In this document: piece after piece, positions 1,735 to 62,650 of the stretch | Layout: every line of letters starts with the position of its first letter | Numbering within the stretch: position 1 is the stretch's first letter | Virus record (IMG/VR): IMGVR_UViG_3300017917_003583 | Span: 1 to 64,000 of that record | Source of the DNA: a virus | Reading direction: 5' to 3' (one strand) | DNA length: 64,000 nt | The notes under the pieces: generated by a model | Database searches by the model: none | What the model was told of the DNA's origin: nothing | The model's input: only the letters and a program-made list of their open reading frames with translations | Program-made: the position numbers and the translations under genes

Positions 1735-2520
1735 TTACCGGTGATTTTGCACCGCTTGCAGCAGTTCTGGAGAAATTTGGTCAGGTATGAACGCCTGTAT
1801 CCGAACCATGCAGTCGCCGCGCTGGCCTTTGGTGTCCTGCAGACCCTGTCCTCGCAGTCTCAAAACCTGGGATGGTTGGCATCTAGGTGGAATGGTCACC
1901 ACCAGGTGATTGCCAGTAACGCTGGTCAGCGGCTGTTCGGATCCCAGCAGCAGATCCCAAATGCACACCCGAATTGTTGTGGACAAATTCAGTCCGTCAC
2001 GGTGCCAATCTGGGTTGGGCTTGATTTTGAACTGAGCCACCAGGTCCATGCCACCGGGGGCAATGCCTGGATATTGCACAGCATCGCCGTCATCCACGCC
2101 CATGGGTATTTTTATTTCGGCTGTGGTGGACCCAGCATCAGTTGATACCGAAATGGTTTTGGACACGCCGCGAGCTATGTCTTCAAGTGTGACCCACAAC
2201 AACACCCGCACATGGTTTCTTCTAGGCGGTTGTCTGAATTGGAAGCCGCCGCGCTCGAACATGTTGAATATATCATGTATGTTGCCTGGGCCACCTGCAC
2301 CCCCAAAATTGTGGAAATTGAATGTTTCGGGTGGACGGTCGTATTCGGCTCGTCGCGCAGGATCACTCAACACTGAATAAGCAGTCTGAATTTCCTGGAA
2401 CCGTGCGGTATCACCGCCGCGGTCAGGATGATGCTGACTGGCCAAACGGCGATAGGCCTGCTTGATTTCGTCTGGTGTGGCAGTGCGGCTCACACCCAGG
2501 GTTGCATAGTGGTCACTCAT
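1735..2520 (-). CDS. J-domain (DnaJ-like) co-chaperone
   Basis: N-terminal J domain with HPD motif (YRRLASQHHPDRGGD). The C-terminal part is not a canonical DnaJ. Confidence 0.8.
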   Translation of the reverse strand: MSDHYATLGVSRTATPDEIKQAYRRLASQHHPDRGGDTARFQEIQTAYSVLSDPARRAEYDRPPETFNFHNFGGAGGPGNIHDIFNMFERGGFQFRQPPRRNHVRVLLWVTLEDIARGVSKTISVSTDAGSTTAEIKIPMGVDDGDAVQYPGIAPGGMDLVAQFKIKPNPDWHRDGLNLSTTIRVCIWDLLLGSEQPLTSVTGNHLVVTIPPRCQPSQVLRLRGQGLQDTKGQRGDCMVRIQAFIPDQISPELLQAVQNHR

Positions 2521-2589
2521 GTGTGTATGGACAAAAGAAAACGCCCTGTGTAGTTATACAGGGCGCGAGTGAATGCAAATCAAAGTCAG

Positions 2590-11206: not shown

Positions 11207-11789
11207 TGCGGAATGTTCCGTACACCACGTGACCGCTGGACTTTGGTTGTTGCGCCGCAGTCCATTCCAAATCCAACTCTTTCCAGCCGTTGCCTTGCAC
11301 TCGCACCACATTGGAGTCGTGTTCCAGTTCGATATCGTTGTGGCGAGTGTTGCTGTGGTGCCACCAGCCGTCAACATCAAACATGCTGTACTGATCTTCT
11401 TGATCCATGCAATACATCAAATGGTTGCCTATTTCGCTCTTGATGTCAATGCCAGTCACTTGCACACGATCTTCCATGATTGAGTTCAACTTGTGGTACA
11501 GCGCCATACCAACAATTTGATCATGGGGGTCTTCGGGCAGTGTAGTGACATTCACACCCAGCGTGGCAAACAAGTCGCCCACACCAGAATCATTTTGGTT
11601 CACAAACACAGTATTTTCCAAAATGCCATACACAAAAGTGCGAACACGCTCTAGAGCAATGGTTATGTCTTCAGCATTGTGGGTTTTGGTTTCCATGTCC
11701 AACCCCACTGTGTAGCGGTTGAGTTCTAGCATGCCGTCAAGGTATGCACCACCTGGGAACTCGACTTCGTAGCGTAGTCTTGCGTTCAT
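11190..11789 (-). CDS. hypothetical protein
   Basis: 199-aa ORF in the operon. Confidence 0.45.
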   Translation of the reverse strand: MNARLRYEVEFPGGAYLDGMLELNRYTVGLDMETKTHNAEDITIALERVRTFVYGILENTVFVNQNDSGVGDLFATLGVNVTTLPEDPHDQIVGMALYHKLNSIMEDRVQVTGIDIKSEIGNHLMYCMDQEDQYSMFDVDGWWHHSNTRHNDIELEHDSNVVRVQGNGWKELDLEWTAAQQPKSSGHVVYGTFRKDDTR

Positions 11790-12019
11790 TGGATTTTGAT
11801 TTTGTCTTCAAAGTCTCCGCCGCGGCTCTTGTTGTATTGAGCCTGCAGGCGACTTCGATATTTGGTTTGGAAAGTTTCAATGGCCATTCTCAGCTGATTG
11901 GCCAGATGCCCGTTGCCCGAGCGCTGCACGATTGACAGTTTGTTGGTCAAATCGTTGATTCGAGCGAGGAGGTCATCATCGCTCAAATCATCAATGTTAC
12001 TGATTAACGGGTGTTCCAT
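11786..12019 (-). CDS. hypothetical coiled-coil protein
   Basis: 77-aa ORF, ATGA-coupled to the downstream gene. Confidence 0.35.
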   Translation of the reverse strand: MEHPLISNIDDLSDDDLLARINDLTNKLSIVQRSGNGHLANQLRMAIETFQTKYRSRLQAQYNKSRGGDFEDKIKIQ

Positions 12020-12063
12020 GCTTCAATTTTATGCAAATTGTCATGGCCTGTCAAGCGTAACGG

Positions 12064-19356: not shown

Positions 19357-19575
19357 TTATCGACGTCGAGTGATACGTCCCTTGGTTAGGTCATAGGGGC
19401 TGAATTCCACTTCCACTGTGTCACCCAGCAGGATTTTGATGTTGTGCTGTCGCATGCGCCCGGAAATGATTCCGGTGATCACTGTTTCAGTGTTGTTGAT
19501 TTTGACTTTGAACATGGCGTTGGGCAGCACGTCTACCACAACCCCGTCCATTTTGATTCCATCTTCTTTGGCCAT
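19357..19575 (-). CDS. infA: translation initiation factor IF-1
   Basis: [71 protein letters not shown] matches bacterial IF1 nearly end to end. The upstream extension in the ORF call is discarded. Confidence 0.85.
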
Positions 19576-23529: not shown

Positions 23530-23901
23530 TTAGACCGGGGCAGGACCAGCTTCGGCCAACAGTTGTTCGGCAGTCACGTCCTTGACCTTCTTGGCAGCAG
23601 GCTTGGCCTTGGCGGCGCGCACCTTGACTTCGCCCTTCTTGGCCACCTTGCTCTTTTCAGCCACCTTGTTGGCCACAACGAAGCCGGCGTCACCTTCGGT
23701 GATACCCAGAGTCTGCAGATGCTGCAGTGCGGCCAGTTTGGTCATGGGCTGTGGCAGCTCAACGAGGTTGATCTCGGTGCAGCCGGCCTTGTTCAAGATC
23801 TTGATGCGAGCCACCAAGTCATTGGCGAAGCGGGCCTTGACGGTGCCGTCAGCGTTGCGAGCGGTACCAGCGACAGTGAAGAGTTTTTCAGTTGCGGACA
23901 T
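23530..23901 (-). CDS. Lys/Ala-rich histone H1-like DNA-binding protein
   Basis: C-terminal KVAKKGEVKVRAAKAKPAAKKVK tail; AAAGG RBS; promoter P3 upstream. Confidence 0.5.
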   Translation of the reverse strand: MSATEKLFTVAGTARNADGTVKARFANDLVARIKILNKAGCTEINLVELPQPMTKLAALQHLQTLGITEGDAGFVVANKVAEKSKVAKKGEVKVRAAKAKPAAKKVKDVTAEQLLAEAGPAPV

Positions 23902-23964
23902 GTGTTGCCTTTCAAAAGTTGCCTAACAAAGTTGGAAAAATATGCTGTGTTTTCAGCATGTCTT

Positions 23965-23993
23965 TATTGTAGCACAGATGCCAATATTGGTCA
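23965..23993 (-). promoter_or_regulatory. promoter P3 (TTGACC-17-TACAAT)
   Basis: Drives 23530..23901; transcript would start at an ATGCTG/CAGCAT hairpin. Confidence 0.6.
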
Positions 23994-24037
23994 ACCTGTT
24001 TTTTGCCACAATTTGGGACGAGGTTTGCCATTTTGAC

Positions 24038-29325: not shown

Positions 29326-30723
29326 TTAACCGCGAGCGTTGGCTCGGACTTGTTCAAACGAGATCTCGTTGTAAAGTTTTCCGTTCTCAAACACCTTCTG
29401 GAGAACATCGACGAATGGGCCAATGCCGCGATCAGTCCAACCGGTAGGTTGATTGACGGCACTAACATATTCGCCCCCACTACTCCAAAGGGTCACTCGG
29501 CCTGCTTTAGATTTCTTACCTGCGTCGGTAATAGGGTCCTTCTGGACATCCACCCAAGTTCCGTTGATACAGGCCGACGACGCCTTCATTGCGAACTTTT
29601 GGGTGTCTCGGTCCACTTGCTGTAGAAGGGCGCCGCCCATACCGAAAGCAATGTTGTCTGCACTCCAGCCCATAGCCATAAAGGCGCCCAGAATGCTGCG
29701 GATAGTGAGTTCATTAACTCCGTCTCCTTGGATGAGTCGAACATTGTTGAGGACACGGAATCCTTTTGAGTTGACGGTGTAGCCAAATTTTTCTCCTAAG
29801 ATTTCAACCAATCGACGGTTAACTTCAACAGGATCACCGGAATCAGGGCGAATAACAACGGTAGCACCACTATCAATAACAAGCTGGCGGAGATCTTCCC
29901 CCCAAAGTTTTGATGCGGCATTGAAAATATCGTAGCTGTCGCTAACCACGGCAACGATGCTACCAGATCGACCAAATTGACGAACCATGTTTTCATAGGC
30001 TTTTACTTCGTTGTCACGACCCCAGCTGGTGATGGTGCTGTGTTCTGCGGCAGGTATTGAGAATCCAGCAATACCAGCATTGTAGTATTCACGAGCAAAG
30101 AGAATACCAGAGATAGTATCAGTGCCCATGAAGTTAACCAAGTGGGCGGCTCCGCCGATACCAGCACTTTCAAGGCTAGAAACACCCCGAGCACCAAAGT
30201 CGTGCAGCTTGAAGTCAATAAGACCAGGATCACCAGTTTTCTCCAGGTATTCAGCAATCACTTGCCGGATTTTCCAACTCTGTGTTGCCACCGTGGTGGG
30301 ATACCAGATGGCACGAAGCAGGGCTGTTTCAAGCCAAGTGGTCAGCCAGAAGCATTCTGGGTCAGTGTTTTCGATTGTGGCCAGCACGTTCTTAACGGGC
30401 ACCACTGTTCCTTCGGGTACTGCTCGGATAACAACTGGAAGAAATCCATTGTGCCGGTCAAGAATGTATTGCCATCCTGCTCGGTTGAAAGGCTCACCGT
30501 GTGCGGTAAGTATTTCATCAGCGACGTCAATGTCAGCCTGGGTGATTGGTTCGAGTAGGTATTCTTTGATAAAGGCCTGGAGTCCAAAGAACACAGTCTT
30601 ATCGTAACGTCCTCCCCGGCTCTCAATATATGAATGGACACCTGTGGTACCTTGTGGCATCTGCTTCCACATACTAACTTTATAACTGTCAGTATTAAGA
30701 ATGATTGATTTTGAAAAAGACAT
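29326..30723 (-). CDS. nadV: nicotinamide phosphoribosyltransferase (Nampt / NadV)
   Basis: SIILNTDSYKVSMW N-terminus and full-length Nampt architecture. ATG at 30723 with AAGGAA RBS; the ORF-track start is an upstream GTG. Confidence 0.85.
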   Translation of the reverse strand: MSFSKSIILNTDSYKVSMWKQMPQGTTGVHSYIESRGGRYDKTVFFGLQAFIKEYLLEPITQADIDVADEILTAHGEPFNRAGWQYILDRHNGFLPVVIRAVPEGTVVPVKNVLATIENTDPECFWLTTWLETALLRAIWYPTTVATQSWKIRQVIAEYLEKTGDPGLIDFKLHDFGARGVSSLESAGIGGAAHLVNFMGTDTISGILFAREYYNAGIAGFSIPAAEHSTITSWGRDNEVKAYENMVRQFGRSGSIVAVVSDSYDIFNAASKLWGEDLRQLVIDSGATVVIRPDSGDPVEVNRRLVEILGEKFGYTVNSKGFRVLNNVRLIQGDGVNELTIRSILGAFMAMGWSADNIAFGMGGALLQQVDRDTQKFAMKASSACINGTWVDVQKDPITDAGKKSKAGRVTLWSSGGEYVSAVNQPTGWTDRGIGPFVDVLQKVFENGKLYNEISFEQVRANARG

Positions 30724-30775
30724 AAAAGTTCCTTTTATATAAAATGCCACCTGTCTATCCAGTGGACTTGTTGTT

Positions 30776-34745: not shown

Positions 34746-35765
34746 TCATGCACCAAGAAAGGTCATTAAGATTTCGAAGTGATCGTCAAAGCATTCTTCA
34801 CTCTTGACCTCTGCGATGGGAACCCAACGTGCCTTCTCTGCATCATCCTGACCCCGCACTCGGGGCAGTTCCCCGTCGGGCAGTTGAATGTAGAATGCAT
34901 GGGTTATTGTGCGCCCACGAGCGCTGCGATCCACAGCATCGAACACCCGACTGCGAACAATACTGCCGCGCAGTACAGGAGCAGGGACTTTGATTCCGGT
35001 TTCTTCACGCAGTTCACGAATCGCTGCGGCTTCCACACTTTTGTCAGTGTTGGCATTAACAAATCCTCCAGGTAGTGCCCACAGTCCTCGGCCAGGTTCG
35101 CTGCGGCGTTTGATCATCAATACATGCCCGCTTTGAATAACCACAGCATCCGCAGTGACAAAGATGGGTGGATAGGGCAGGCTTGCGTATTGCTTTTTGT
35201 AGTTGTCAATGAACTCACGTTCACGGATGATCTGCTCGAATTCTTCGCTCTTACGGAACTCCATGAGAAAATCGTAGGTAGTAGGTGGCACCACGTTCTT
35301 GATGAAGTTGCTGTTGAAACTACGCTTGAAGTAAAGACCCCGAATGTCCACAGCACTCAAGGGCTCGATTTCTTCCACGTTGACGGATTCCCACTGGGGG
35401 AACATGTCCAAGTAGAAGCTGGACTCGTCTTTTTTGTAGCCAATGATGGCGTCTTTGCGACCCAGGCAACGATACTTGCTCTGGATGCTCTGCACTCGCA
35501 CAGCCCAAGCCTGGTCGTTGTAGATGGTGTCGGTGTTGGATTCGATATGCACCTGCATGTTCAAGCCAGCAGTGGCACTACGAATCATTTGGCGACGTTC
35601 TTCAAATGTGAACGGGTTCTTGTAAGTGCGGGGCTGATTGGCACTGCCCACGATCACCACAAGATTGTCAGTCAGTGCAGTGCAGCGCTTGATGATTTCC
35701 AAGTGTGCATTGTGCAGGGGTTGGAAGCGTCCGATTAGAACAACGGAGTTATAGGGCTTAGACAT
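34746..35765 (-). CDS. natV: bifunctional NMN adenylyltransferase / Nudix hydrolase (NadM / NatV-type)
   Basis: N-terminal cytidylyltransferase motif VLIGRFQPLHNAH; C-terminal Nudix box GGFVNANTDKSVEAAAIRELREETGI. Start at MSKPYN with AAGGAGA RBS. Confidence 0.8.
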   Translation of the reverse strand: MSKPYNSVVLIGRFQPLHNAHLEIIKRCTALTDNLVVIVGSANQPRTYKNPFTFEERRQMIRSATAGLNMQVHIESNTDTIYNDQAWAVRVQSIQSKYRCLGRKDAIIGYKKDESSFYLDMFPQWESVNVEEIEPLSAVDIRGLYFKRSFNSNFIKNVVPPTTYDFLMEFRKSEEFEQIIREREFIDNYKKQYASLPYPPIFVTADAVVIQSGHVLMIKRRSEPGRGLWALPGGFVNANTDKSVEAAAIRELREETGIKVPAPVLRGSIVRSRVFDAVDRSARGRTITHAFYIQLPDGELPRVRGQDDAEKARWVPIAEVKSEECFDDHFEILMTFLGA

Positions 35766-35943
35766 TTTCAGTCTCCTTAACTGTGTATTCCAAAATTTCA
35801 TCGGCGCTGATGCTTTTATATTTCAAGGCCATCATAGCATACTCGCCGGCAACTTTGCCGGCCCATTGATCTGCGCTCATGCCCAAACTATTGTCATCGG
35901 GCACACTGACCAGAATCTTAACAGAGATTTCAAACTGTTTCAT
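35758..35943 (-). CDS. hypothetical small protein
   Basis: 61-aa ORF. Confidence 0.35.
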   Translation of the reverse strand: MKQFEISVKILVSVPDDNSLGMSADQWAGKVAGEYAMMALKYKSISADEILEYTVKETENV

Positions 35944-37314: not shown

Positions 37315-37350
37315 CTCCTGTTTGTTTACGCTATGTTGATATTATAGCAC
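37315..37350. repeat. 35-bp promoter-leader cassette, copy A
   Basis: ctcctgtttgtttacgctatgttgatattatagcac. Confidence 0.8.
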
Positions 37351-37369
37351 AAGGTGCCATTTTGGTCAA
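37341..37369 (-). promoter_or_regulatory. promoter P8 (TTGACC-17-TATAAT) plus conserved leader
   Basis: Perfect consensus; the leader ATCAACATAGCGTAAACAAACAGGAG is shared with P9 and P10. Confidence 0.7.
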
Positions 37370-39413: not shown

Positions 39414-39448
39414 TCCTGTTCGTTTACGCTATGTTGATATTATAGCAA
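39414..39448. repeat. 35-bp promoter-leader cassette, copy B
   Basis: Identical except for one nt. Confidence 0.8.
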
Positions 39449-39467
39449 AACGGGCAATTTTGGTCAA
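39439..39467 (-). promoter_or_regulatory. promoter P9 (TTGACC-17-TATAAT) plus conserved leader
   Basis: Copy B of the cassette. Confidence 0.7.
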
Positions 39468-39733: not shown

Positions 39734-39768
39734 CTCCTGTTCGTTTACGCTATGTTGATATTATAGCA
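39734..39768. repeat. 35-bp promoter-leader cassette, copy C
   Basis: Identical except for one nt. Confidence 0.8.
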
Positions 39769-39789
39769 CAGGGAGTGAATTTCGGGCAA
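39760..39789 (-). promoter_or_regulatory. promoter P10 (TTGCCC-18-TATAAT) plus conserved leader
   Basis: Copy C of the cassette. Confidence 0.6.
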
Positions 39790-44182: not shown

Positions 44183-44566
44183 TTAACGATATCGCTTGGT
44201 CACGCGGTCGTAGCCAATCTTTTCATAAAAGTCCCAGACGCCCCGGCACACAGGCACAGTGTTGGGATCTTCGTCCAGTCGGGTGAGGAAACTTGCAATG
44301 GATTCACCAGATCTGGGTTCGTGAACACTGCAATACTTGACGGTCCGGGCATAAGCCACCCAGTCTCGGTTGAGAGGGTCCTCAGGAAATGCTCGGTTCA
44401 GTTCTCGTGTGCAGAACGCCTGGAACGATACGGCCTGGCGGTAGAAGTCAGGCTCCCCACGTGAGGGCATTTCCACAATGTAGAAGGTGCCGAACGTGTT
44501 GCCCGGCTCGTGAAATTCAATCAGTCGCTGTTTCATTGCCCACCCGAATAGTTGCAAAACAGTCAT
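44183..44566 (-). CDS. hypothetical protein
   Basis: 127-aa ORF. Confidence 0.4.
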   Translation of the reverse strand: MTVLQLFGWAMKQRLIEFHEPGNTFGTFYIVEMPSRGEPDFYRQAVSFQAFCTRELNRAFPEDPLNRDWVAYARTVKYCSVHEPRSGESIASFLTRLDEDPNTVPVCRGVWDFYEKIGYDRVTKRYR

Positions 44567-45053
44567 TGATGGTCAGGGTCTGTTGTTCCAGTTCATCGCG
44601 CACAGTGATCTTGCGTTGCATGATGCCATAACTGGCCATGAAAGGCTTGGCAGCGAACCGCTCCACAACCACACGACGGGCTTCGTTCTTGCTGGCCACA
44701 ATCAGATTGTCGCCCACACGAATCTCGTTGCCATATCGATCATGCGGCACACACAGGTCCATGTAAACATCATCGTAGTTCACACCCTCGGGGGTGATTT
44801 CCACTTTGGGCCGATGCCCACCGTGAACTGGGAGTGGGCGACGGATCACTTGTTGAAGGTCAAACAACCAAATGCCACCGCACAAACCTTGTGCTTGCAC
44901 CCGTTGTTGCCGCTCCATGATCTGCTCGTGGGTGAGCCCTTCAAGACGCCATTGATCAGGATAGTCCTGAACGCCGATTTCGACGCCGTCGGCAACGACG
45001 CCAGCTAGTGGGCCAGACAGGATGCGGTAACGATGGATGTATTTGCGATTCAT
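44517..45053 (-). CDS. hypothetical protein expressed from a leaderless transcript
   Basis: ATG at 45053 lies 6 nt downstream of the P12 -10 element; the ORF-track start at 45071 reads through the promoter. Confidence 0.5.
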   Translation of the reverse strand: MNRKYIHRYRILSGPLAGVVADGVEIGVQDYPDQWRLEGLTHEQIMERQQRVQAQGLCGGIWLFDLQQVIRRPLPVHGGHRPKVEITPEGVNYDDVYMDLCVPHDRYGNEIRVGDNLIVASKNEARRVVVERFAAKPFMASYGIMQRKITVRDELEQQTLTINDCFATIRVGNETATD

Positions 45054-45059
45054 GTGTGT

Positions 45060-45088
45060 ATTGTAGCACAACAGGGATTTTGAGTCAA
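45060..45088 (-). promoter_or_regulatory. promoter P12 (TTGACT-17-TACAAT), leaderless
   Basis: ATG of 44517..45053 is 6 nt after the -10. Confidence 0.6.
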
Positions 45089-45505: not shown

Positions 45506-45706
45506 TCAGTTACCTGCATAGATCGAAACATACCGTTCGCCATCTTCCAAGTCAAATGGGCCGGTGTCCTCAACCTCATCTGTCACATGTGCTGAACTCA
45601 GCTCACCGCAGTCACCTGATGCACCATGCCGATAGAACACTTCCAAGTCACCGTGACCTTGTGCTTCCAGTTCTTGCAATTGTTTGATAAATTTTGACAG
45701 TTTCAT
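45506..45706 (-). CDS. hypothetical small acidic protein
   Basis: Start at MKLSKF. Confidence 0.35.
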   Translation of the reverse strand: MKLSKFIKQLQELEAQGHGDLEVFYRHGASGDCGELSSAHVTDEVEDTGPFDLEDGERYVSIYAGN

Positions 45707-50785: not shown

Positions 50786-51886
50786 TTATAGCAGATCCAC
50801 CCGCTCCCATGGCAAGTGATCTTTGCCAAAGTGACCATAATTGGTGGTCGAGCTGTAGATGGGCCGGAACAGGTTAAAACGCTCGATGATACCCGCTGGT
50901 GTCAGGTCCACAAGGCCAGAAATCTTGTTGGTCAACTGTCTGCTAAGGGCAGCATCGTGAGTTTCTATATAGAAACTCATGGGTTGCTTGACGCCGATTG
51001 CATAGCTGACCTGGCATGTGGCCCAGGGTGCAGCACCACTGGCCACAATGTTCTTGGCAATGTATCGCATCATGTATGCTGCCGAGCGATCCACCTTGGT
51101 GGGATCCTTGCCCGAGAAGGCGCCACCACCATGCGGAGCGTAGCCACCGTAGGTGTCCACAATGATCTTGCGTCCGGTCACACCTGCATCGCCGTCGGGT
51201 CCGCCAATCACAAATCGTCCAGTGGGGTTGATGTAGAACTCGGTGTTGTTATCCACGTATTTCCCGGGCAGGAGAGCACGAATCATGGATTCCACTGCAC
51301 CACGCACCAGTTCAATATCCACGGCGTCACTGTGCTGAGTGCTGCATACCACCTTGGCAATACGCACCGGAACATTGTTGTCATCGTACTCAAACGTGAC
51401 CTGACTCTTGGCGTCTGGGCCCAGCCATTCAACTGTGCCATTGCGTCGCTGGCGAGCCAGCATGTCCACGATTCTGTGGCTCCAGTAGATGGCCGACGGC
51501 ATGTAGTTTTCGGTTTCATTGCAGGCATAGCCAAACATGAGACCTTGATCCCCGGCACCAAAGCTGTCAGTGCCCAGGGCGATGTCAGCAGATTGTCCGT
51601 GCAAGAGATTGGTCAGTTCCAGATTCTGCCAGTGGAATCCCGACTGCTCATATCCAATGCGCCGGACTGTTTCTCGCACGGCAGTTTCGACTTGGTCAAA
51701 ATCCAATGCACCTTTGTACTCTCCAGCCAGGACCACACGGTTGGTGGTCACCAGGGTTTCGCAGGCACACCGGTACGCAGGATTTTGATGCTGCATGACC
51801 AGATCCAACACTGCATCACTGATGGCATCGGCCACTTTGTCTGGGTGTCCTTCGGACACTGATTCTGATGTAAACAAATAACTCAT
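50786..51886 (-). CDS. metK: S-adenosylmethionine synthetase
   Basis: MSYLFTSESVSEGHPDKVADAISDAVLD N-terminus plus GGGAFSGKDPTKVDRS. Start at 51886 with AAAGGAA RBS. Confidence 0.85.
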   Translation of the reverse strand: MSYLFTSESVSEGHPDKVADAISDAVLDLVMQHQNPAYRCACETLVTTNRVVLAGEYKGALDFDQVETAVRETVRRIGYEQSGFHWQNLELTNLLHGQSADIALGTDSFGAGDQGLMFGYACNETENYMPSAIYWSHRIVDMLARQRRNGTVEWLGPDAKSQVTFEYDDNNVPVRIAKVVCSTQHSDAVDIELVRGAVESMIRALLPGKYVDNNTEFYINPTGRFVIGGPDGDAGVTGRKIIVDTYGGYAPHGGGAFSGKDPTKVDRSAAYMMRYIAKNIVASGAAPWATCQVSYAIGVKQPMSFYIETHDAALSRQLTNKISGLVDLTPAGIIERFNLFRPIYSSTTNYGHFGKDHLPWERVDLL

Positions 51887-51932
51887 GGGTTCCTTTTGGT
51901 TGAATTGAATGTTGCTGGCAACATGTGATTTA

Positions 51933-52638
51933 TTATTCCATGCCCAACAGCTGAAGTTTGTGGGCTTCGTAATAGCTGACGCCAGGCTGGCCGGGCATGC
52001 TTGAATGTCTGATCCACTCGGCTTTGACTCGGATGCGATTTGCCCGGTAGATGCTGCTGAGCAATTGAGTATGCTCTGGGCTGGTGCTCTTGACCATGAA
52101 CGGCGCGCCAGTTTCGGTATCACGGTACCAAAACACCGCGGTTTTGCTTTTGGAGGGATGGGTGCGAGTGTTTTTGCGATAGGGGCTGTACCAGGTCACT
52201 GGGGTTAGATCCACAGTGCTGTTGACCAGCAGGGCCGTGAGTGGAGTGCACACTGACATCACATGGTCGATACAGCGGTCTTCGTGATAAAAGTAAGGCA
52301 GCAAAACTGCCATGCCATGATCCACAGGATCCAGGGTCAATTCTTCGTTAAACCAGGCCAGGGCCTTGGTTCTAAACTCACTCAGTGTGTGCCCGCGCAG
52401 AGCTTGAATGGTCCACTTGTCCTGAAAGTAGCGGCGAACCATGTGTGCCACTTCTTCGAGAGTTTTGTCCTTTAGATCTGGCAGTGGTGTGCCCGGGCAG
52501 TTGCCAAGGTATGCTGACACACCGTCGATCATCATGGATTCCATGGTGGTGGAGTTTTTTCTAAACACACTGACGTCGTCATCCAAGTCCGCCGAAGGAT
52601 TCTGGAGCGTGATGGTCAGCTTGGAAAACACAGTGTTC
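51933..52638 (-). CDS. hypothetical protein
   Basis: Start at MNTVFSK. Confidence 0.45.
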
Positions 52639-59028: not shown

Positions 59029-59249
59029 CTCAGTGAGAACAGCACAGCATCAGACTCGTTGGCAAAGTGGTATTCGTAGCCGCTCTCGCCGTTTTTTCTG
59101 AATCCAGACCAAAAGCAGCACCAGGTGCCCGACCTGTTGCCTGTGATTTGCCACTCAACGCCGAAATTTTCTCTGCACCATGTCATGACTTGAGCTTGAT
59201 ATTGGGCGTGACAATAGCCCATCGTCACTAGGTACGGAAATTTTTTCAT
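59019..59249 (-). CDS. LRW-family small protein
   Basis: MKKFPY...WCRENFG...ESDAVLFSLRWT. Confidence 0.5.
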   Translation of the reverse strand: MKKFPYLVTMGYCHAQYQAQVMTWCRENFGVEWQITGNRSGTWCCFWSGFRKNGESGYEYHFANESDAVLFSLRWT

Positions 59250-59467
59250 TGTGACCACCTCAACATGAACCAGGTGTGCTGTGCTTCTGTTTCGAACCGC
59301 ACTGCATAAACCAATCCGTCTTGATCCATGCACAGATGCAGCCCAAACTCTTGCTCAAGTTCTTGACTCACAGTGGCGCTCCAGCTCAAGTTGTGTTTTT
59401 GGCGCAGCCACCCAATGGCTTGACGAAGTGCACGATGCATGCTGTTGACTGGAATCTCAGGTGTCAT
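59246..59467 (-). CDS. LRW-family small protein
   Basis: Ends EAQHTWFMLRWSQ; ATGA overlaps on both sides. Confidence 0.5.
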   Translation of the reverse strand: MTPEIPVNSMHRALRQAIGWLRQKHNLSWSATVSQELEQEFGLHLCMDQDGLVYAVRFETEAQHTWFMLRWSQ

Positions 59468-59730
59468 GATGCCATTATCTCAAAAAGTGTGGCCCACTGA
59501 GTATCAGGTTCCATGTGAAAACTTGTGCCCCATGCTAGCCATACTCGACGTTTGTAGGCTTTTTTCAACCAAACAGTTTTGCCTGTTATGGTTTTGTGTG
59601 GCAGCAAAGCAAATGCCTCACGCCAGGGATAACAGTCATGACCGTCTTCAATCACCGTGAGCTTGAGCTGACCTGGGCTATAAACATTGTACCGTTGTTG
59701 CATGCGTCGGGCAAAACCATTGTAACTCAT
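59464..59730 (-). CDS. LRW-family-related small protein
   Basis: MSYNGFARR...; divergent ending LFEIMAS; ATGA-coupled. Confidence 0.45.
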   Translation of the reverse strand: MSYNGFARRMQQRYNVYSPGQLKLTVIEDGHDCYPWREAFALLPHKTITGKTVWLKKAYKRRVWLAWGTSFHMEPDTQWATLFEIMAS

Positions 59731-59900
59731 GACCACCTCAACAAGTAAAGAGTATAAACATCTTCGTTCATCCAAAAATTATCGCCGAGGCCTTCACCCC
59801 ATCGGTCCCCATTGACACCAAAATTTTTTACTAGCCAAAGTTTAATTTCTAACTTACGATTCCAGTTCCAAAATTCTGTTGCAATTTTATGTCGTTTCAT
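59727..59900 (-). CDS. LRW-family small protein (57 aa, not in ORF track)
   Basis: MKRHKIATEFWNW...NEDVYTLYLLRWS. Confidence 0.45.
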   Translation of the reverse strand: MKRHKIATEFWNWNRKLEIKLWLVKNFGVNGDRWGEGLGDNFWMNEDVYTLYLLRWS

Positions 59901-60121
59901 GACCACCTCAATGAGAACGCCACAGCATCTTTTTCATCACCAAACAAGTAGTCAATGTGTGTGGTAAGGACCCAACCTCCCTGGACTTTGGTAAGGCCTC
60001 CCTCGTTGAAGTTTCGTTCATTGGTAATGTAGCTGGGACAGTTTTTTACAGCCCATGACAGATGGCTCTGGTCTTCGGGATTGTATGGCCACTTGTATGG
60101 CAAGGTCACTCTAAAGCTCAT
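59897..60121 (-). CDS. LRW-family small protein
   Basis: Ends EKDAVAFSLRWS. Confidence 0.5.
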   Translation of the reverse strand: MSFRVTLPYKWPYNPEDQSHLSWAVKNCPSYITNERNFNEGGLTKVQGGWVLTTHIDYLFGDEKDAVAFSLRWS

Positions 60122-60300
60122 AGCCACCTCAACGCAAACAGTGTGTAGATTTCTTCTTGCATGTACAGTTCCACAAAATCATAACCAAGTGCCACCCGCC
60201 ATTGGGCACCTTCAGGGCCAAAGTTGCCGGTCAGCCAGTTGACTGCCTCGCCCGCACGATCGGGCGCCCATCGTTCTAGATCAACTCTTTGCCATGCCAT
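60118..60300 (-). CDS. LRW-family small protein
   Basis: MAWQRVD...EEIYTLFALRWL. Confidence 0.5.
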   Translation of the reverse strand: MAWQRVDLERWAPDRAGEAVNWLTGNFGPEGAQWRVALGYDFVELYMQEEIYTLFALRWL

Positions 60301-60716
60301 CACAGCCACCTCAATGCAAACAGTGTGTAATCGCGGGGGTTTTCAAATGCCGCAAAAATGTAGTCCCAGCCGCCCAGTTCATTCATTACCCACTCGTTGT
60401 TGGTAGATGGTTCGTTGATGGCTCGAAGAATATCAAATCTCACACGGCCTTGGCAGTTGGCATCTGCCCACTCCTGCAGCCGGTCAAAGCCAGATTGATG
60501 CACGTCCCAATCATAAGCCACGTGCTGGTAATCTTCAAAGCAATGAAATACTGGGTAGCCGTGATAGAAATCACGGACTTGTGTGGCACTGTAATTTACT
60601 CTGGGATCGTAGTGACGATGGTATTGCTTCCAACTGACACACCCGTGCCGGCGCAAGAAGCGACGATCTTGCATGAATCGAATTCGCCGGCGCAGCGTCT
60701 GAACCCAGGTAACCAC
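60300..60716 (-). CDS. LRW-family protein (138 aa)
   Basis: Ends NPRDYTLFALRWL; GTG start. Confidence 0.45.
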   Translation of the reverse strand: MVTWVQTLRRRIRFMQDRRFLRRHGCVSWKQYHRHYDPRVNYSATQVRDFYHGYPVFHCFEDYQHVAYDWDVHQSGFDRLQEWADANCQGRVRFDILRAINEPSTNNEWVMNELGGWDYIFAAFENPRDYTLFALRWL

Positions 60717-60719
60717 AGG

Positions 60720-61046
60720 TCATGCTCCCCAACGCAGTCGATACCATTCATAGTCCTGTGCATCGCGAAACTTGATCTGGCAGCGAGTGGTGAAGCTATA
60801 TGTCCAGCGACTCCATGCATCAGGTCGTAGGGGTTCAGGTCCAAATGTTTCTTTACACCACTCCAGCCGGGCAATGTCATCGCTATAGGGGCCGGGGGCA
60901 AGATCAACAGTGAACCACTGCCGACTGAACTTGTATTTGTTTTTGGGTTGATGTTTGCGCGCCGGTCTCATGATCAATTGGTCAGGCATGTTGCTTTCAT
61001 TGCAAAGGTTGGTGTAAAACAGTTGATGCTGTTTGAGTGAGTTCAT
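60720..61046 (-). CDS. LRW-family protein on a leaderless transcript
   Basis: LEWCKETFGPEP...DAQDYEWYRLRWGA; ATG lies 6 nt from the P18 -10. Confidence 0.5.
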   Translation of the reverse strand: MNSLKQHQLFYTNLCNESNMPDQLIMRPARKHQPKNKYKFSRQWFTVDLAPGPYSDDIARLEWCKETFGPEPLRPDAWSRWTYSFTTRCQIKFRDAQDYEWYRLRWGA

Positions 61047-61052
61047 GTTTGT

Positions 61053-61081
61053 ATTGTAAGCGATACGGGATTATACGTCAA
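61053..61081 (-). promoter_or_regulatory. promoter P18 (TTGACG-17-TACAAT), leaderless
   Basis: ATG of 60720..61046 is 6 nt after the -10. Confidence 0.6.
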
Positions 61082-61325
61082 CGCCCTGACTCCAGCGCAA
61101 GGCACACATCAGGGCATCGTGTTCTTCCAGAAACCAAACGTGAATCACGCTGCGGTGGCCGTTCACAGTAACTAGATATGAGTACCTGCCCGGCAGATAG
61201 TTGGTCTGCTGGTCCAACCAATCAATCACGGCGCGCAGGGCTTGTGTACTGTCGTCCCAATTTAGAAAGCCCAGCTGCCGATGGACGGGTATGTGCACCA
61301 CATGATTGTGATTTTCGGGAATCAT
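61071..61325 (-). CDS. LRW-family small protein
   Basis: MIPENHN...EEHDALMCALRWSQGVDV; the ORF-track start is trimmed. Confidence 0.45.
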   Translation of the reverse strand: MIPENHNHVVHIPVHRQLGFLNWDDSTQALRAVIDWLDQQTNYLPGRYSYLVTVNGHRSVIHVWFLEEHDALMCALRWSQGVDV

Positions 61326-61516
61326 GTCCACCTCAAACTGAACATCAAGGCATGCTGTGAGTCTTTGAAGTAGTAGGTTACCCGCGCCCAGGTCTTGACC
61401 ACATACCAGTCTCGGCTCAAAACACCCACGTTGTCGTTCAGCCAAGATTTGATTTCGGCATCTGCACCAGTGGGATGTACTTGGTAAGGCCAAATTTGTT
61501 GATTCAATACTCTCAT
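61322..61516 (-). CDS. LRW-family small protein
   Basis: MRVLNQQ...DSQHALMFSLRWT. Confidence 0.5.
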   Translation of the reverse strand: MRVLNQQIWPYQVHPTGADAEIKSWLNDNVGVLSRDWYVVKTWARVTYYFKDSQHALMFSLRWT

Positions 61517-61680
61517 GACCACCTCAGCGAATACATCACAAACGCCTGTTCATCTTTGAAATACATGTAGCCACGACGATGCCACCAGTTACCACCCACA
61601 ACATCCTTGCAAATATGGGTGCGACACCACGCGACTCTGTCCGAGGTATTGCCAACATGAATCTTTTTGAAGAATCTCAT
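61513..61680 (-). CDS. LRW-family small protein (55 aa, not in ORF track)
   Basis: MRFFKKIH...DEQAFVMYSLRWS. Confidence 0.45.
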   Translation of the reverse strand: MRFFKKIHVGNTSDRVAWCRTHICKDVVGGNWWHRRGYMYFKDEQAFVMYSLRWS

Positions 61681-61892
61681 GACCACCTCAGCACAAACAA
61701 TGTCACATCCTCTTCACGATACAGCACAAAATTGGTCCATGCGTGAAGGTCTTCCCAGTTCCAACGGCCGTCAAAGTTAGCTCGGCACCATTCACGGATC
61801 TCCCGAACACGGTCGGGATTGTCGCGGCGACTGTAGGGCACCTTGCAGAGCCAAAACTCCTCGGTCCAACCAAGTTTGACTTCTACGGTCAT
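61677..61892 (-). CDS. LRW-family small protein
   Basis: MTVEVKLGW...REWCRANFDGRW...EEDVTLFVLRWS. Confidence 0.5.
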   Translation of the reverse strand: MTVEVKLGWTEEFWLCKVPYSRRDNPDRVREIREWCRANFDGRWNWEDLHAWTNFVLYREEDVTLFVLRWS

Positions 61893-62137
61893 GTCCACCT
61901 CAACAAAAATGCAGTCAGGTCAGCATCATTGCGAAACCAAAAGCAACAGTCATTCAAGTACCACCGTTCGGCCACGGTAGAAAACATATCACCTGGCTCA
62001 CCAAACGCGACGATGCACCAAGATTCCATTGCAGCCCAGGTGTTTTGATTTTCAGTAATACTCCAACTGGTGAGGTAGGGTTGTACCGTCTGGTACCTAC
62101 AACCATGCCACTGTCTTTCAACTATGTTGGCTTTCAT
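61889..62137 (-). CDS. LRW-family small protein
   Basis: MKANIVERQW...ESWCIVAFGEPG...NDADLTAFLLRWT. Confidence 0.5.
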   Translation of the reverse strand: MKANIVERQWHGCRYQTVQPYLTSWSITENQNTWAAMESWCIVAFGEPGDMFSTVAERWYLNDCCFWFRNDADLTAFLLRWT

Positions 62138-62367
62138 GTCCACCTCAACTGAAACAACACAACATCTGCTTCATCATGAAACCAAATCTCGCCCCAGCGA
62201 ATCTGGTCACGCCATCTGGTGTCACTTGGTTCACCATATGTGGCTCGACACCAGTCTTTTAGTTCTCGCAGAAGATCAAACTTGGGGTAGTCAAACGCCA
62301 CAATCCAACCCGATGCCGGCCCCCAATGCGCAGATCGTGTGTTGGTGTGATACACATGTAGGTACAT
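62134..62367 (-). CDS. LRW-family small protein
   Basis: KDWCRATYGEPSDTRW...DEADVVLFQLRWT. Confidence 0.5.
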   Translation of the reverse strand: MYLHVYHTNTRSAHWGPASGWIVAFDYPKFDLLRELKDWCRATYGEPSDTRWRDQIRWGEIWFHDEADVVLFQLRWT

Positions 62368-62371
62368 GCCT

Positions 62372-62650
62372 TCACCATCGCAGCAAAAACAACGAGGCTT
62401 TCTCGGGTTCAGTGAACCACAGATAGTCGCCCAAAAGCATGACGTTATCGTCTCCTACGTTTTCAAGTAGCCAATTCCAAACCTGTGGATTGACGTCCAC
62501 GGGGATGGTGACTCGGGTATAGCCAGCCAGTTTCAACTCACGATTGATATTGAATCGATTGCACGGTAGCAACACCTCGGAGGCAGACAGGCCACGCATG
62601 CGGGCTCGATATGTTTCATGCGCTTGATCTACAAACAGGCGCACTGGCAT
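62372..62650 (-). CDS. LRW-family small protein
   Basis: MPVRLF...EPEKASLFLLRW. Confidence 0.45.
   Translation of the reverse strand: MPVRLFVDQAHETYRARMRGLSASEVLLPCNRFNINRELKLAGYTRVTIPVDVNPQVWNWLLENVGDDNVMLLGDYLWFTEPEKASLFLLRW

Follow-up and report, generated by a model that had tools for sequence, protein, structure and literature searches.

Promoters that place a start codon at the predicted transcription start: candidate leaderless genes in a large uncultured phage

Can a phage that leads most of its genes with a Shine-Dalgarno (SD) sequence also carry genes whose messenger RNA (mRNA) begins at the start codon itself? The question is raised by a stretch of viral DNA of 64,000 nucleotides (nt), positions 1 to 64,000 of the IMG/VR record IMGVR_UViG_3300017917_003583, hereafter the window. 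An earlier note on this DNA had pointed out that at two promoters, P12 and P18, an ATG lies 6 nt after the -10 element with no SD before it, and had proposed that both transcripts are leaderless. The geometry is as it described, and the two ATGs do open the open reading frames (ORFs) 44517..45053 and 60720..61046 on the minus strand. A third site of the same kind lies at 12017..12054. From the DNA of the window and of its relatives, we consider it probable that the transcripts of all three promoters are leaderless and are translated as such.

Nearly all genes of the window lie on the minus strand, as do the three sites. At P12, where this strand reads ggTTGACTcaaaatccctgttgtgcTACAATacacacATGaatcgc, the -35 hexamer TTGACT (45083..45088) contains the TGA stop (45087..45085) of an upstream gene of 55 amino acids (aa), and a 17-nt spacer separates it from the -10 hexamer TACAAT (45060..45065), itself preceded by an extended -10 TGc. 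The ATG (45051..45053) opens a 178-aa gene (44517..45053) that would head the P12 transcript as its first cistron; the following gene starts at 44536 behind a GGTGG SD and overlaps it. At P18 (gcgTTGACGtataatcccgtatcgctTACAATacaaacATGaac), TTGACG (61076..61081) and TACAAT (61053..61058) flank a 17-nt spacer holding the TAA stop (61073..61071) of the upstream ORF, and the ATG (61044..61046) opens a 108-aa gene (60720..61046) that belongs to a family of tandem paralogues with proteins ending in ...RLRWGA. The third site, which the earlier note lacks, reads TTGACA-17-TAAAAT-tgaagc-ATG and opens a 77-aa gene (MEHPL..., 11786..12019), placed after a tail-fibre-like gene with a 44-nt gap and coupled to the next gene by an ATGA overlap. 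Six nucleotides separate each -10 element from its ATG: acacac at P12, acaaac at P18 and tgaagc at the 77-aa gene. All three sites have sigma-70 hexamers with 17-base-pair spacers, and the hexamers are kept in the relatives of P12 and P18. The third site matches the consensus at 11 of 12 positions, P12 and P18 at 10 of 12 (P12 with the extended -10 TG in addition), and the last two are among the six best promoters that a scan found between 44 and 64 kb.

Where would transcription begin at such promoters? In Escherichia coli, positions 6, 7, 8 and 9 after the -10 element account for 8, 55, 29 and 7% of starts, a purine being strongly preferred at +1 and a pyrimidine preferred at -1 (PMC5730371). 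At each of the three sites the A of the ATG (45053 at P12, 61046 at P18, 12019 at the 77-aa gene) occupies position 7, behind a C at position 6 and ahead of a disfavoured T at position 8, so that the main transcript is predicted to begin pppAUG. To the extent that sequence can tell, the three sites have every property expected of leaderless mRNAs, with a 5' end that is predicted.

Sigma-70-type promoters are not rare in this DNA. With at most one mismatch allowed, 15 matches to TTGAC-N18-TACAAT were counted in the window where 1.18 would be expected, 14 of them on the minus, that is the coding, strand; clearly, the phage makes use of sigma-70 promoters of the host type. The full layout, TTGAC-N18-TAMAAT-N6-ATG, was tested against 100 shuffles: it occurs four times where 0.06 are expected, and no shuffle reached four. 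The four matches are P12, P18, 12017..12054 and 23957..23994, the last of which turns out to be something else, as discussed below. A relaxed scan over all called gene starts of the window gave no additional credible case of a promoter followed by 6 nt and an ATG; the ATG at 45519, which it flagged, was rejected as internal to the frame of another gene.

How unusual is it for a gene of this window to lack an SD? Measured as the energy of the duplex with the anti-SD over 110 genes called by a codon-bias model, SD strength is -4 kcal/mol or lower in 81 genes and -3 or lower in 94, leaving 16 that are weaker than -3. The three leaderless candidates are the weakest of the window, at +0.4 to +0.9 kcal/mol (+0.9 for the ATG at 61046), and no match to the SD core is present in the 22 nt that precede the ATG at 45053. 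Both the duplex energies and the upstream sequence therefore agree with the earlier note that the P12 and P18 genes have no SD. Its statement that every other gene has a clear AGGAG-type ribosome-binding site went too far, given the 16 weak cases, and also because many of the SDs are GAGGTG rather than AGGAG; GAGGTG is indeed the commonest motif in the gene array at 59-62 kb.

Conservation speaks most clearly for the 77-aa gene. We compared upstream DNA across the loci of homologues, numbered L001 onward; for this family, 80 IMG/VR loci, on contigs mostly of tens to about 350 kb and many above 100 kb, gave 63 distinct upstream sequences. The distance from the -10 element to the ATG is 6 nt in 37 of these 63, 5 nt in 11 and 7 nt in one, 49 in total. 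In the 36 upstream sequences with the 17+6 geometry, mean information is 1.74 bits in the -35 element, 1.56 in the -10 element and 2.0 in the ATG, against 0.31 in the spacer and 0.36 in the discriminator, and in 44 of 49 relatives a pyrimidine precedes the ATG. Geometry and pyrimidine/purine context are held while the filler between them is randomised, as one would expect if selection acts to keep the start at the A of the AUG. The protein points to the same codon, since its MEHPL N-terminus is invariant in 24 sequences. This is the strongest leaderless case of the three, with a layout that, judging from these alignments, appears to be maintained by selection. In five of the 63 relatives the promoter is below threshold; among them, L023, L024 and L065 carry a leader with an SD, and in L088 TACAAT+6 is paired with a weaker -35. 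Other long ORFs of related loci (77-175 codons) also have their ATG exactly 6 nt after a near-consensus TTGACx-17-TATAAT (L011 at 7193, L002 at 1569 and 2290, L003 at 1980), so that the layout is used at further genes of the clade.

The remaining nine of the 63 loci (L044, L047, L048, L056, L058, L060, L075, L089 and L091) show an alternative SD-less arrangement. Their promoter is 21-22 nt upstream, a terminator-like, GC-rich hairpin (gggccctt...aagggc followed by a T-run) has the -10 element in its loop, and the ATG comes after the T-run, again with no SD.

The 178-aa family tells a different history. Homologues were found at 99 to 48% identity, and 17 sequences align from Met1 as M-x-R-x-Y-x-H-R-Y-[KR]-[IV]-L; a TTG at 45071, within the promoter spacer, which is the mechanical start of the ORF, was rejected, as homologues align from the ATG. 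Strain variants at 99% identity (L332/L333) have the upstream layout of the window. At 85% identity, L008/L009 read TTGACT-17-TATAAT-ctacac-ATG, where the geometry is kept and the bases differ. At 88% identity, L006/L007 have TTGACA-17-TATAAT followed by 29 nt that include GGAG. In an alignment of the window, L008 and L006, the first two lack exactly the 23 nt that form the leader of the third, with hexamers and ATG in register: L006/L007 align base for base save for the extra 23 nt with the GGAG, so the leader is precisely absent in the window. The homologue of L010 (82% identity) has no promoter and is ATGA-coupled to the upstream gene, and in the relatives at about 60% (L001, L002 and L094-L107, 44-62% identity) a promoter is followed by 29-31 nt with a weak or moderate SD. 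On these comparisons, the leaderless layout of P12 would be derived rather than ancestral, common to at least two diverged phages and not obligatory.

At P18, the nearest relatives have a similar layout. L108 (58% identity) reads TTGACT-17-TAAAAT-acacac-ATG, and L110 shows TAAAAT-acacac-ATG at the edge of its contig, with a long ORF that opens exactly at TAAAAT+6; L011-L013 (75% identity) read TTGCTA-17-TAAAAT-agagc-ATG, with a 5-nt spacing. These relatives have about 30-38 additional N-terminal residues (IPAGEM..GRxVGKS) that are absent from the window protein, which keeps codons 1-2 (MN) and resumes at LKQ. The in-frame N-terminal deletion in the window gene has thus left the promoter-proximal ATG intact. 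The ORF upstream of P18 (61071..61493, minus strand) is in the same frame as the 108-aa gene, and the TAA and eight sense codons between the two are the promoter spacer and the -10 element.

The three ATGs are authentic starts: the 178-aa and 77-aa families are conserved from Met1 onward, and the near relatives of the 108-aa protein start at the equivalent ATG. Contigs that encode identical proteins were also examined for transcript ends; they are assembled from DNA and continue beyond the ATG on its upstream side.

How would such genes be expressed? Host polymerase with its primary, sigma-70-type, sigma factor would read P12, P18 and the 12054 site, starting at most 1 nt away from the A of the AUG, and each mRNA would have neither a 5' untranslated region (UTR) nor an SD. 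On the first cistron, a 70S ribosome with fMet-tRNA would bind the 5'-terminal AUG, the downstream cistrons being translated from ordinary SDs or through translational coupling. 70S ribosomes are known to bind a 5'-terminal AUG directly in leaderless translation, which is favoured by unstructured 5' ends and by CA-rich sequence downstream of the AUG (PMC9031893). The predicted 5' ends are of this sort. In the P12 transcript, nucleotides 1-60 fold worse than 200 of 200 shuffles (z = +2.28) and leave the AUG unpaired; at P18, the AUG and the next 12 nt are unpaired in the predicted fold, and the first 40 nt are rich in C and A, with 7.5% G, within the lowest 3% of genes; at the 77-aa gene the AUG is touched by a weak 4-base-pair stem only. 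P12 and P18 are in long arrays on the same strand, and the promoter/terminator scan found no convincing terminator just upstream of either, so read-through transcripts would carry the ATG internally. There, with no SD, it is expected to be poorly translated, and synthesis of the 178-aa and 108-aa proteins would therefore likely depend on the firing of their own promoter and follow it, as lambda cI does from PRM versus PRE. The exact start, the 70S route and this dependence on the promoter are what we infer from promoter geometry and sequence. Translation from a 5'-terminal AUG has as its hallmarks 70S binding, tolerance to kasugamycin and inhibition by initiation factor 3 (IF3). The proposal of the earlier note, two leaderless transcripts as a deliberate alternative, gains from the geometry, the conserved starts, the unstructured 5' ends and the recurrence in relatives; it had overlooked the third site and exaggerated the contrast with the other genes.

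The main rival is that the promoters are real and the position of the ATG is merely a consequence of tight packing. The promoters would then serve the SD-bearing genes downstream, and the first ORF would be translated mainly from polycistronic read-through mRNA, by reinitiation or by 70S scanning past the upstream stop. Packing is indeed tight. The intergenic gaps are just 31 nt at P12 and 24 nt at P18, and since the upstream stops fall inside the P12 -35 element and the P18 spacer, these gaps contain essentially just the promoter; neither has a convincing terminator upstream, and the homologues in L010, L109 and L111 are ATGA-coupled. With upstream stops 24-31 nt before the ATGs, termination and reinitiation on read-through mRNA could translate these genes, and could do so alongside the leaderless route. 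However, packing does not predict one exact spacing, whereas the 77-aa family peaks sharply at 6 nt amid randomised neighbours and with its pyrimidine at -1. Other promoters of the same compact window keep 20-37 nt between their -10 element and an ATG that has an SD, and 70S scanning is described as ending at a canonical ribosome-binding site (PMC9031893), which the P12 and P18 genes do not have. We regard packing as an unlikely full account of the layout.

Another possibility is that transcription starts elsewhere: on the G of the ATG, at a point at least 2 nt upstream, or from another promoter. The mRNA would then have a short leader, or have lost its AUG, with ORFs starting downstream. The host polymerase may differ from that of E. 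coli, and positions 8 and 9 together receive about 36% of the starts in E. coli libraries (PMC5730371). Also, for the L110 homologue of the 108-aa protein the gene caller chose an internal ATG, 49 codons short. Against this, position 8 is the disfavoured T, residues are conserved from Met1 on in both families, and the downstream in-frame starts have no SD (the best of them within the first 25 codons of the 108-aa gene, the ATG at 60989, has a duplex of -0.1 kcal/mol); the long ORF of L110, moreover, begins exactly at TAAAAT+6. It seems quite improbable to us that the main start lies elsewhere.

The fourth match to the layout shows that an ATG can be found at this position for another reason. 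At 23957..23994 (minus strand) the DNA reads TTGACC-17-TACAAT-aaagac-ATG, and we considered this site as a leaderless upstream ORF. It was rejected, as the ATG at 23959 opens just 15 codons and is the 5' arm of a conserved hairpin. This hairpin (23959..23942, minus strand; AUGCUG-aaaaca-CAGCAU and then a U-run) lies in the leader of a highly conserved 123-aa gene (23530..23901, minus strand) that has its own weak GAAAGG-type SD and relatives 64-84% identical across the clade. Many relatives (loci L172-L249) keep the position of the hairpin while its stem sequences vary. The predicted +1 of the promoter of the 123-aa gene is the first base of the hairpin, and a conserved leader, aggcaacttNgaaaggcaac, follows it. 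The structure could be a 5' stabiliser or an attenuator. That the ATGs of P12 and P18 are likewise by-products of RNA structure at the 5' end, or of some other non-coding signal, is very improbable, despite this precedent of an ATG in a hairpin arm conserved in many relatives, since both AUGs are unpaired in the predicted folds (the P12 end being less structured than every shuffle), both open conserved ORFs, of 178 and 108 codons, and no covarying stem including the AUG was seen at either.

Several points do weigh against the leaderless interpretation. The start rules are extrapolated from E. coli to an uncultured phage, represented by a 65.5-kb JGI/Logan metagenome contig, whose host may follow others. 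Should a minor share of transcripts begin at position 9, the G of the ATG, their 5' end could not be translated. In the 77-aa family, the 5-nt spacing of 11 members moves the A to the less favoured position 6. Most P12 homologues have 29-31 nt between the -10 element and the ATG, that is a leader of 22-24 nt; with most homologues leadered and L010 ATGA-coupled, leaderlessness is dispensable for that gene. At P18, most of the distant paralogues (L112-L171, at 35-48% identity) are coupled via ttGAGGTGGnnATGA, which contains a GAGGTGG SD, to the paralogue that precedes them, and L109 and L111 are ATGA-coupled, so that the layout is confined to near relatives. Last, leaderless mRNAs are mostly weakly translated in E. 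coli-like systems.

The phage also encodes its own initiation factor 1 (IF-1), as the earlier note had reported: an infA homologue lies at about 19357..19575 on the minus strand, and its product shares 56% identity with E. coli IF1 (E = 5e-23). Being about 60% identical to the IF-1 of many bacterial phyla, it does not point to any particular host. In vitro, leaderless translation is stimulated by IF1 and IF2 and inhibited by IF3; IF1 is also required for canonical initiation and stimulates leadered and leaderless translation alike (PMC9031893). IF1 genes are already known in huge phages (PMC7162821). A link between the phage IF-1 and leaderless translation is speculation. We see little chance that this clade of uncultured phages of 200-350 kb uses leaderless mRNAs as a deliberate, clade-wide class, with IF-1 shifting initiation in the infected cell toward transcripts with a 5' AUG. 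If it did, the phage itself would programme a switch between translation led by an SD and leaderless translation, with the 77-aa gene leaderless across dozens of lineages.

The three proteins give few hints of what they do. Searches of Pfam and PHROGs with the 178-aa, 108-aa and 77-aa proteins gave no match. The model of the 178-aa protein (pLDDT 83) has weak matches only, to tandem Tudor, Agenet and KOW-like beta-barrels, and none in the PDB at E <= 0.001; the protein is predicted to consist of tandem small beta-barrels. The model of the 77-aa protein is a helical hairpin, uninformative for function. A tblastn search of INPHARED with this protein gave no match, nor did megablast of the P12 and P18 regions against the same database. 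A neighbouring 315-aa protein matches only the C-terminal domains of cyanophage hypothetical proteins and of Acinetobacter phage tail-fibre proteins.

The 108-aa gene is a member of an array at about 59200..62400 (minus strand) of tandem small paralogous genes with products ending in ...F/Y-x-L-R-W-x*. Within the array, the L-R-W codons encode the GAGGTG SD of the next gene, whose start overlaps the stop (ATGA). In P0037, a homologue of 60720..61046, the N-terminal 50 residues match the T4 Gp23 major capsid family (Pfam PF07068, E = 2e-7), and the motif NLCxExxMP of the window protein aligns with the gp23-like NLIAQSIIGVQPM. By this resemblance, the 108-aa family may derive from, or mimic, the N-terminal segment of a capsid protein.

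Elsewhere in the window, three minus-strand promoters of the form TTGACC/TTGCCC-17/18-TATAAT (37338..37369, 39436..39467 and 39757..39789) are each followed by a near-identical 26-nt leader, atcaacatagcgtaaac(g/a)aacaggag, in what looks like a repeated cassette ahead of three different small genes. A DnaJ-like gene with a J domain and DnaJ_C (1735..2520, minus strand) has no SD. Its ATG (region 2520..2583, minus strand) comes after ccatacacac, 11 nt downstream of a terminator-like hairpin (about 2565..2532). Auxiliary metabolic genes on the minus strand encode NAMPT (nicotinamide phosphoribosyltransferase, 29326..30750), a fusion of cytidylyltransferase-like and NUDIX domains (34746..35801) that possibly acts in nicotinamide adenine dinucleotide salvage, and S-adenosylmethionine synthetase (50786..52123). 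A search of the whole window against Rfam gave no known RNA family.

Leaderless mRNAs are well known, and two sites alone would add little. The value lies in the repeated use and conservation of the layout within a clade of uncultured jumbo phages; it is unusual for phages otherwise using strong SDs and full sigma-70 promoters. The P12 gene and its 88%-identical relative, which has the same promoter and a 23-nt SD leader, form a natural before-and-after pair for the loss of a leader. Also, gene callers can miss or shorten such genes, and a promoter followed by 6 nt and an ATG is a cheap annotation rule for the clade.

How do these genes compare with known systems? This phage resembles the huge phages of Al-Shayeb et al. 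2020, large, uncultured and with IF1 or IF3 genes proposed to redirect host initiation (PMC7162821), an article in which the word leaderless does not occur. Nothing relevant on leaderless transcripts was found in the literature on phage Cappable-seq. Like phiKZ and AR9, jumbo phages with mapped transcriptomes, the phage is very large and has many promoters. phiKZ showed no leaderless transcript, and its 5' UTRs are typically 31-40 nt (PMC8244752), and in AR9 5' UTRs range from 26 to 491 nt (PMC5312081). Both use phage-encoded RNA polymerases, whereas the promoters here look host sigma-70-type.

The lambda cI gene is a closer parallel. Its PRM transcript begins at the A of the AUG, and the gene is also carried internally on the longer PRE transcript, with a different translation efficiency. 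As at PRM, a sigma-70 promoter here places the start, by prediction, at the A of the AUG, with no SD. Lambda cI is cited as a model leaderless mRNA (PMC9031893). Unlike cI, the genes described here are not repressors by any test, they belong to a lytic-looking, very large uncultured phage with at least three such genes per 64 kb, and their transcription start is predicted from sequence.

The other parallel is with the leaderless transcripts of Actinobacteria and their phages, of Deinococcus and of archaea, where the -10 element is likewise just before a start codon with no SD. In these organisms leaderless initiation is the common mode, and the promoters usually have no strong -35 element. In the account of Shell et al. 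2015 given in PMC8244752, many genes lack an SD and have their -10 element 6-7 nt ahead of the start codon. The phage differs from these systems in two ways: its candidate leaderless genes have the full TTGACA-17-TATAAT architecture, and, as SD-led genes dominate the window (81 of 110 at -4 kcal/mol or lower), they are the exception among its genes.

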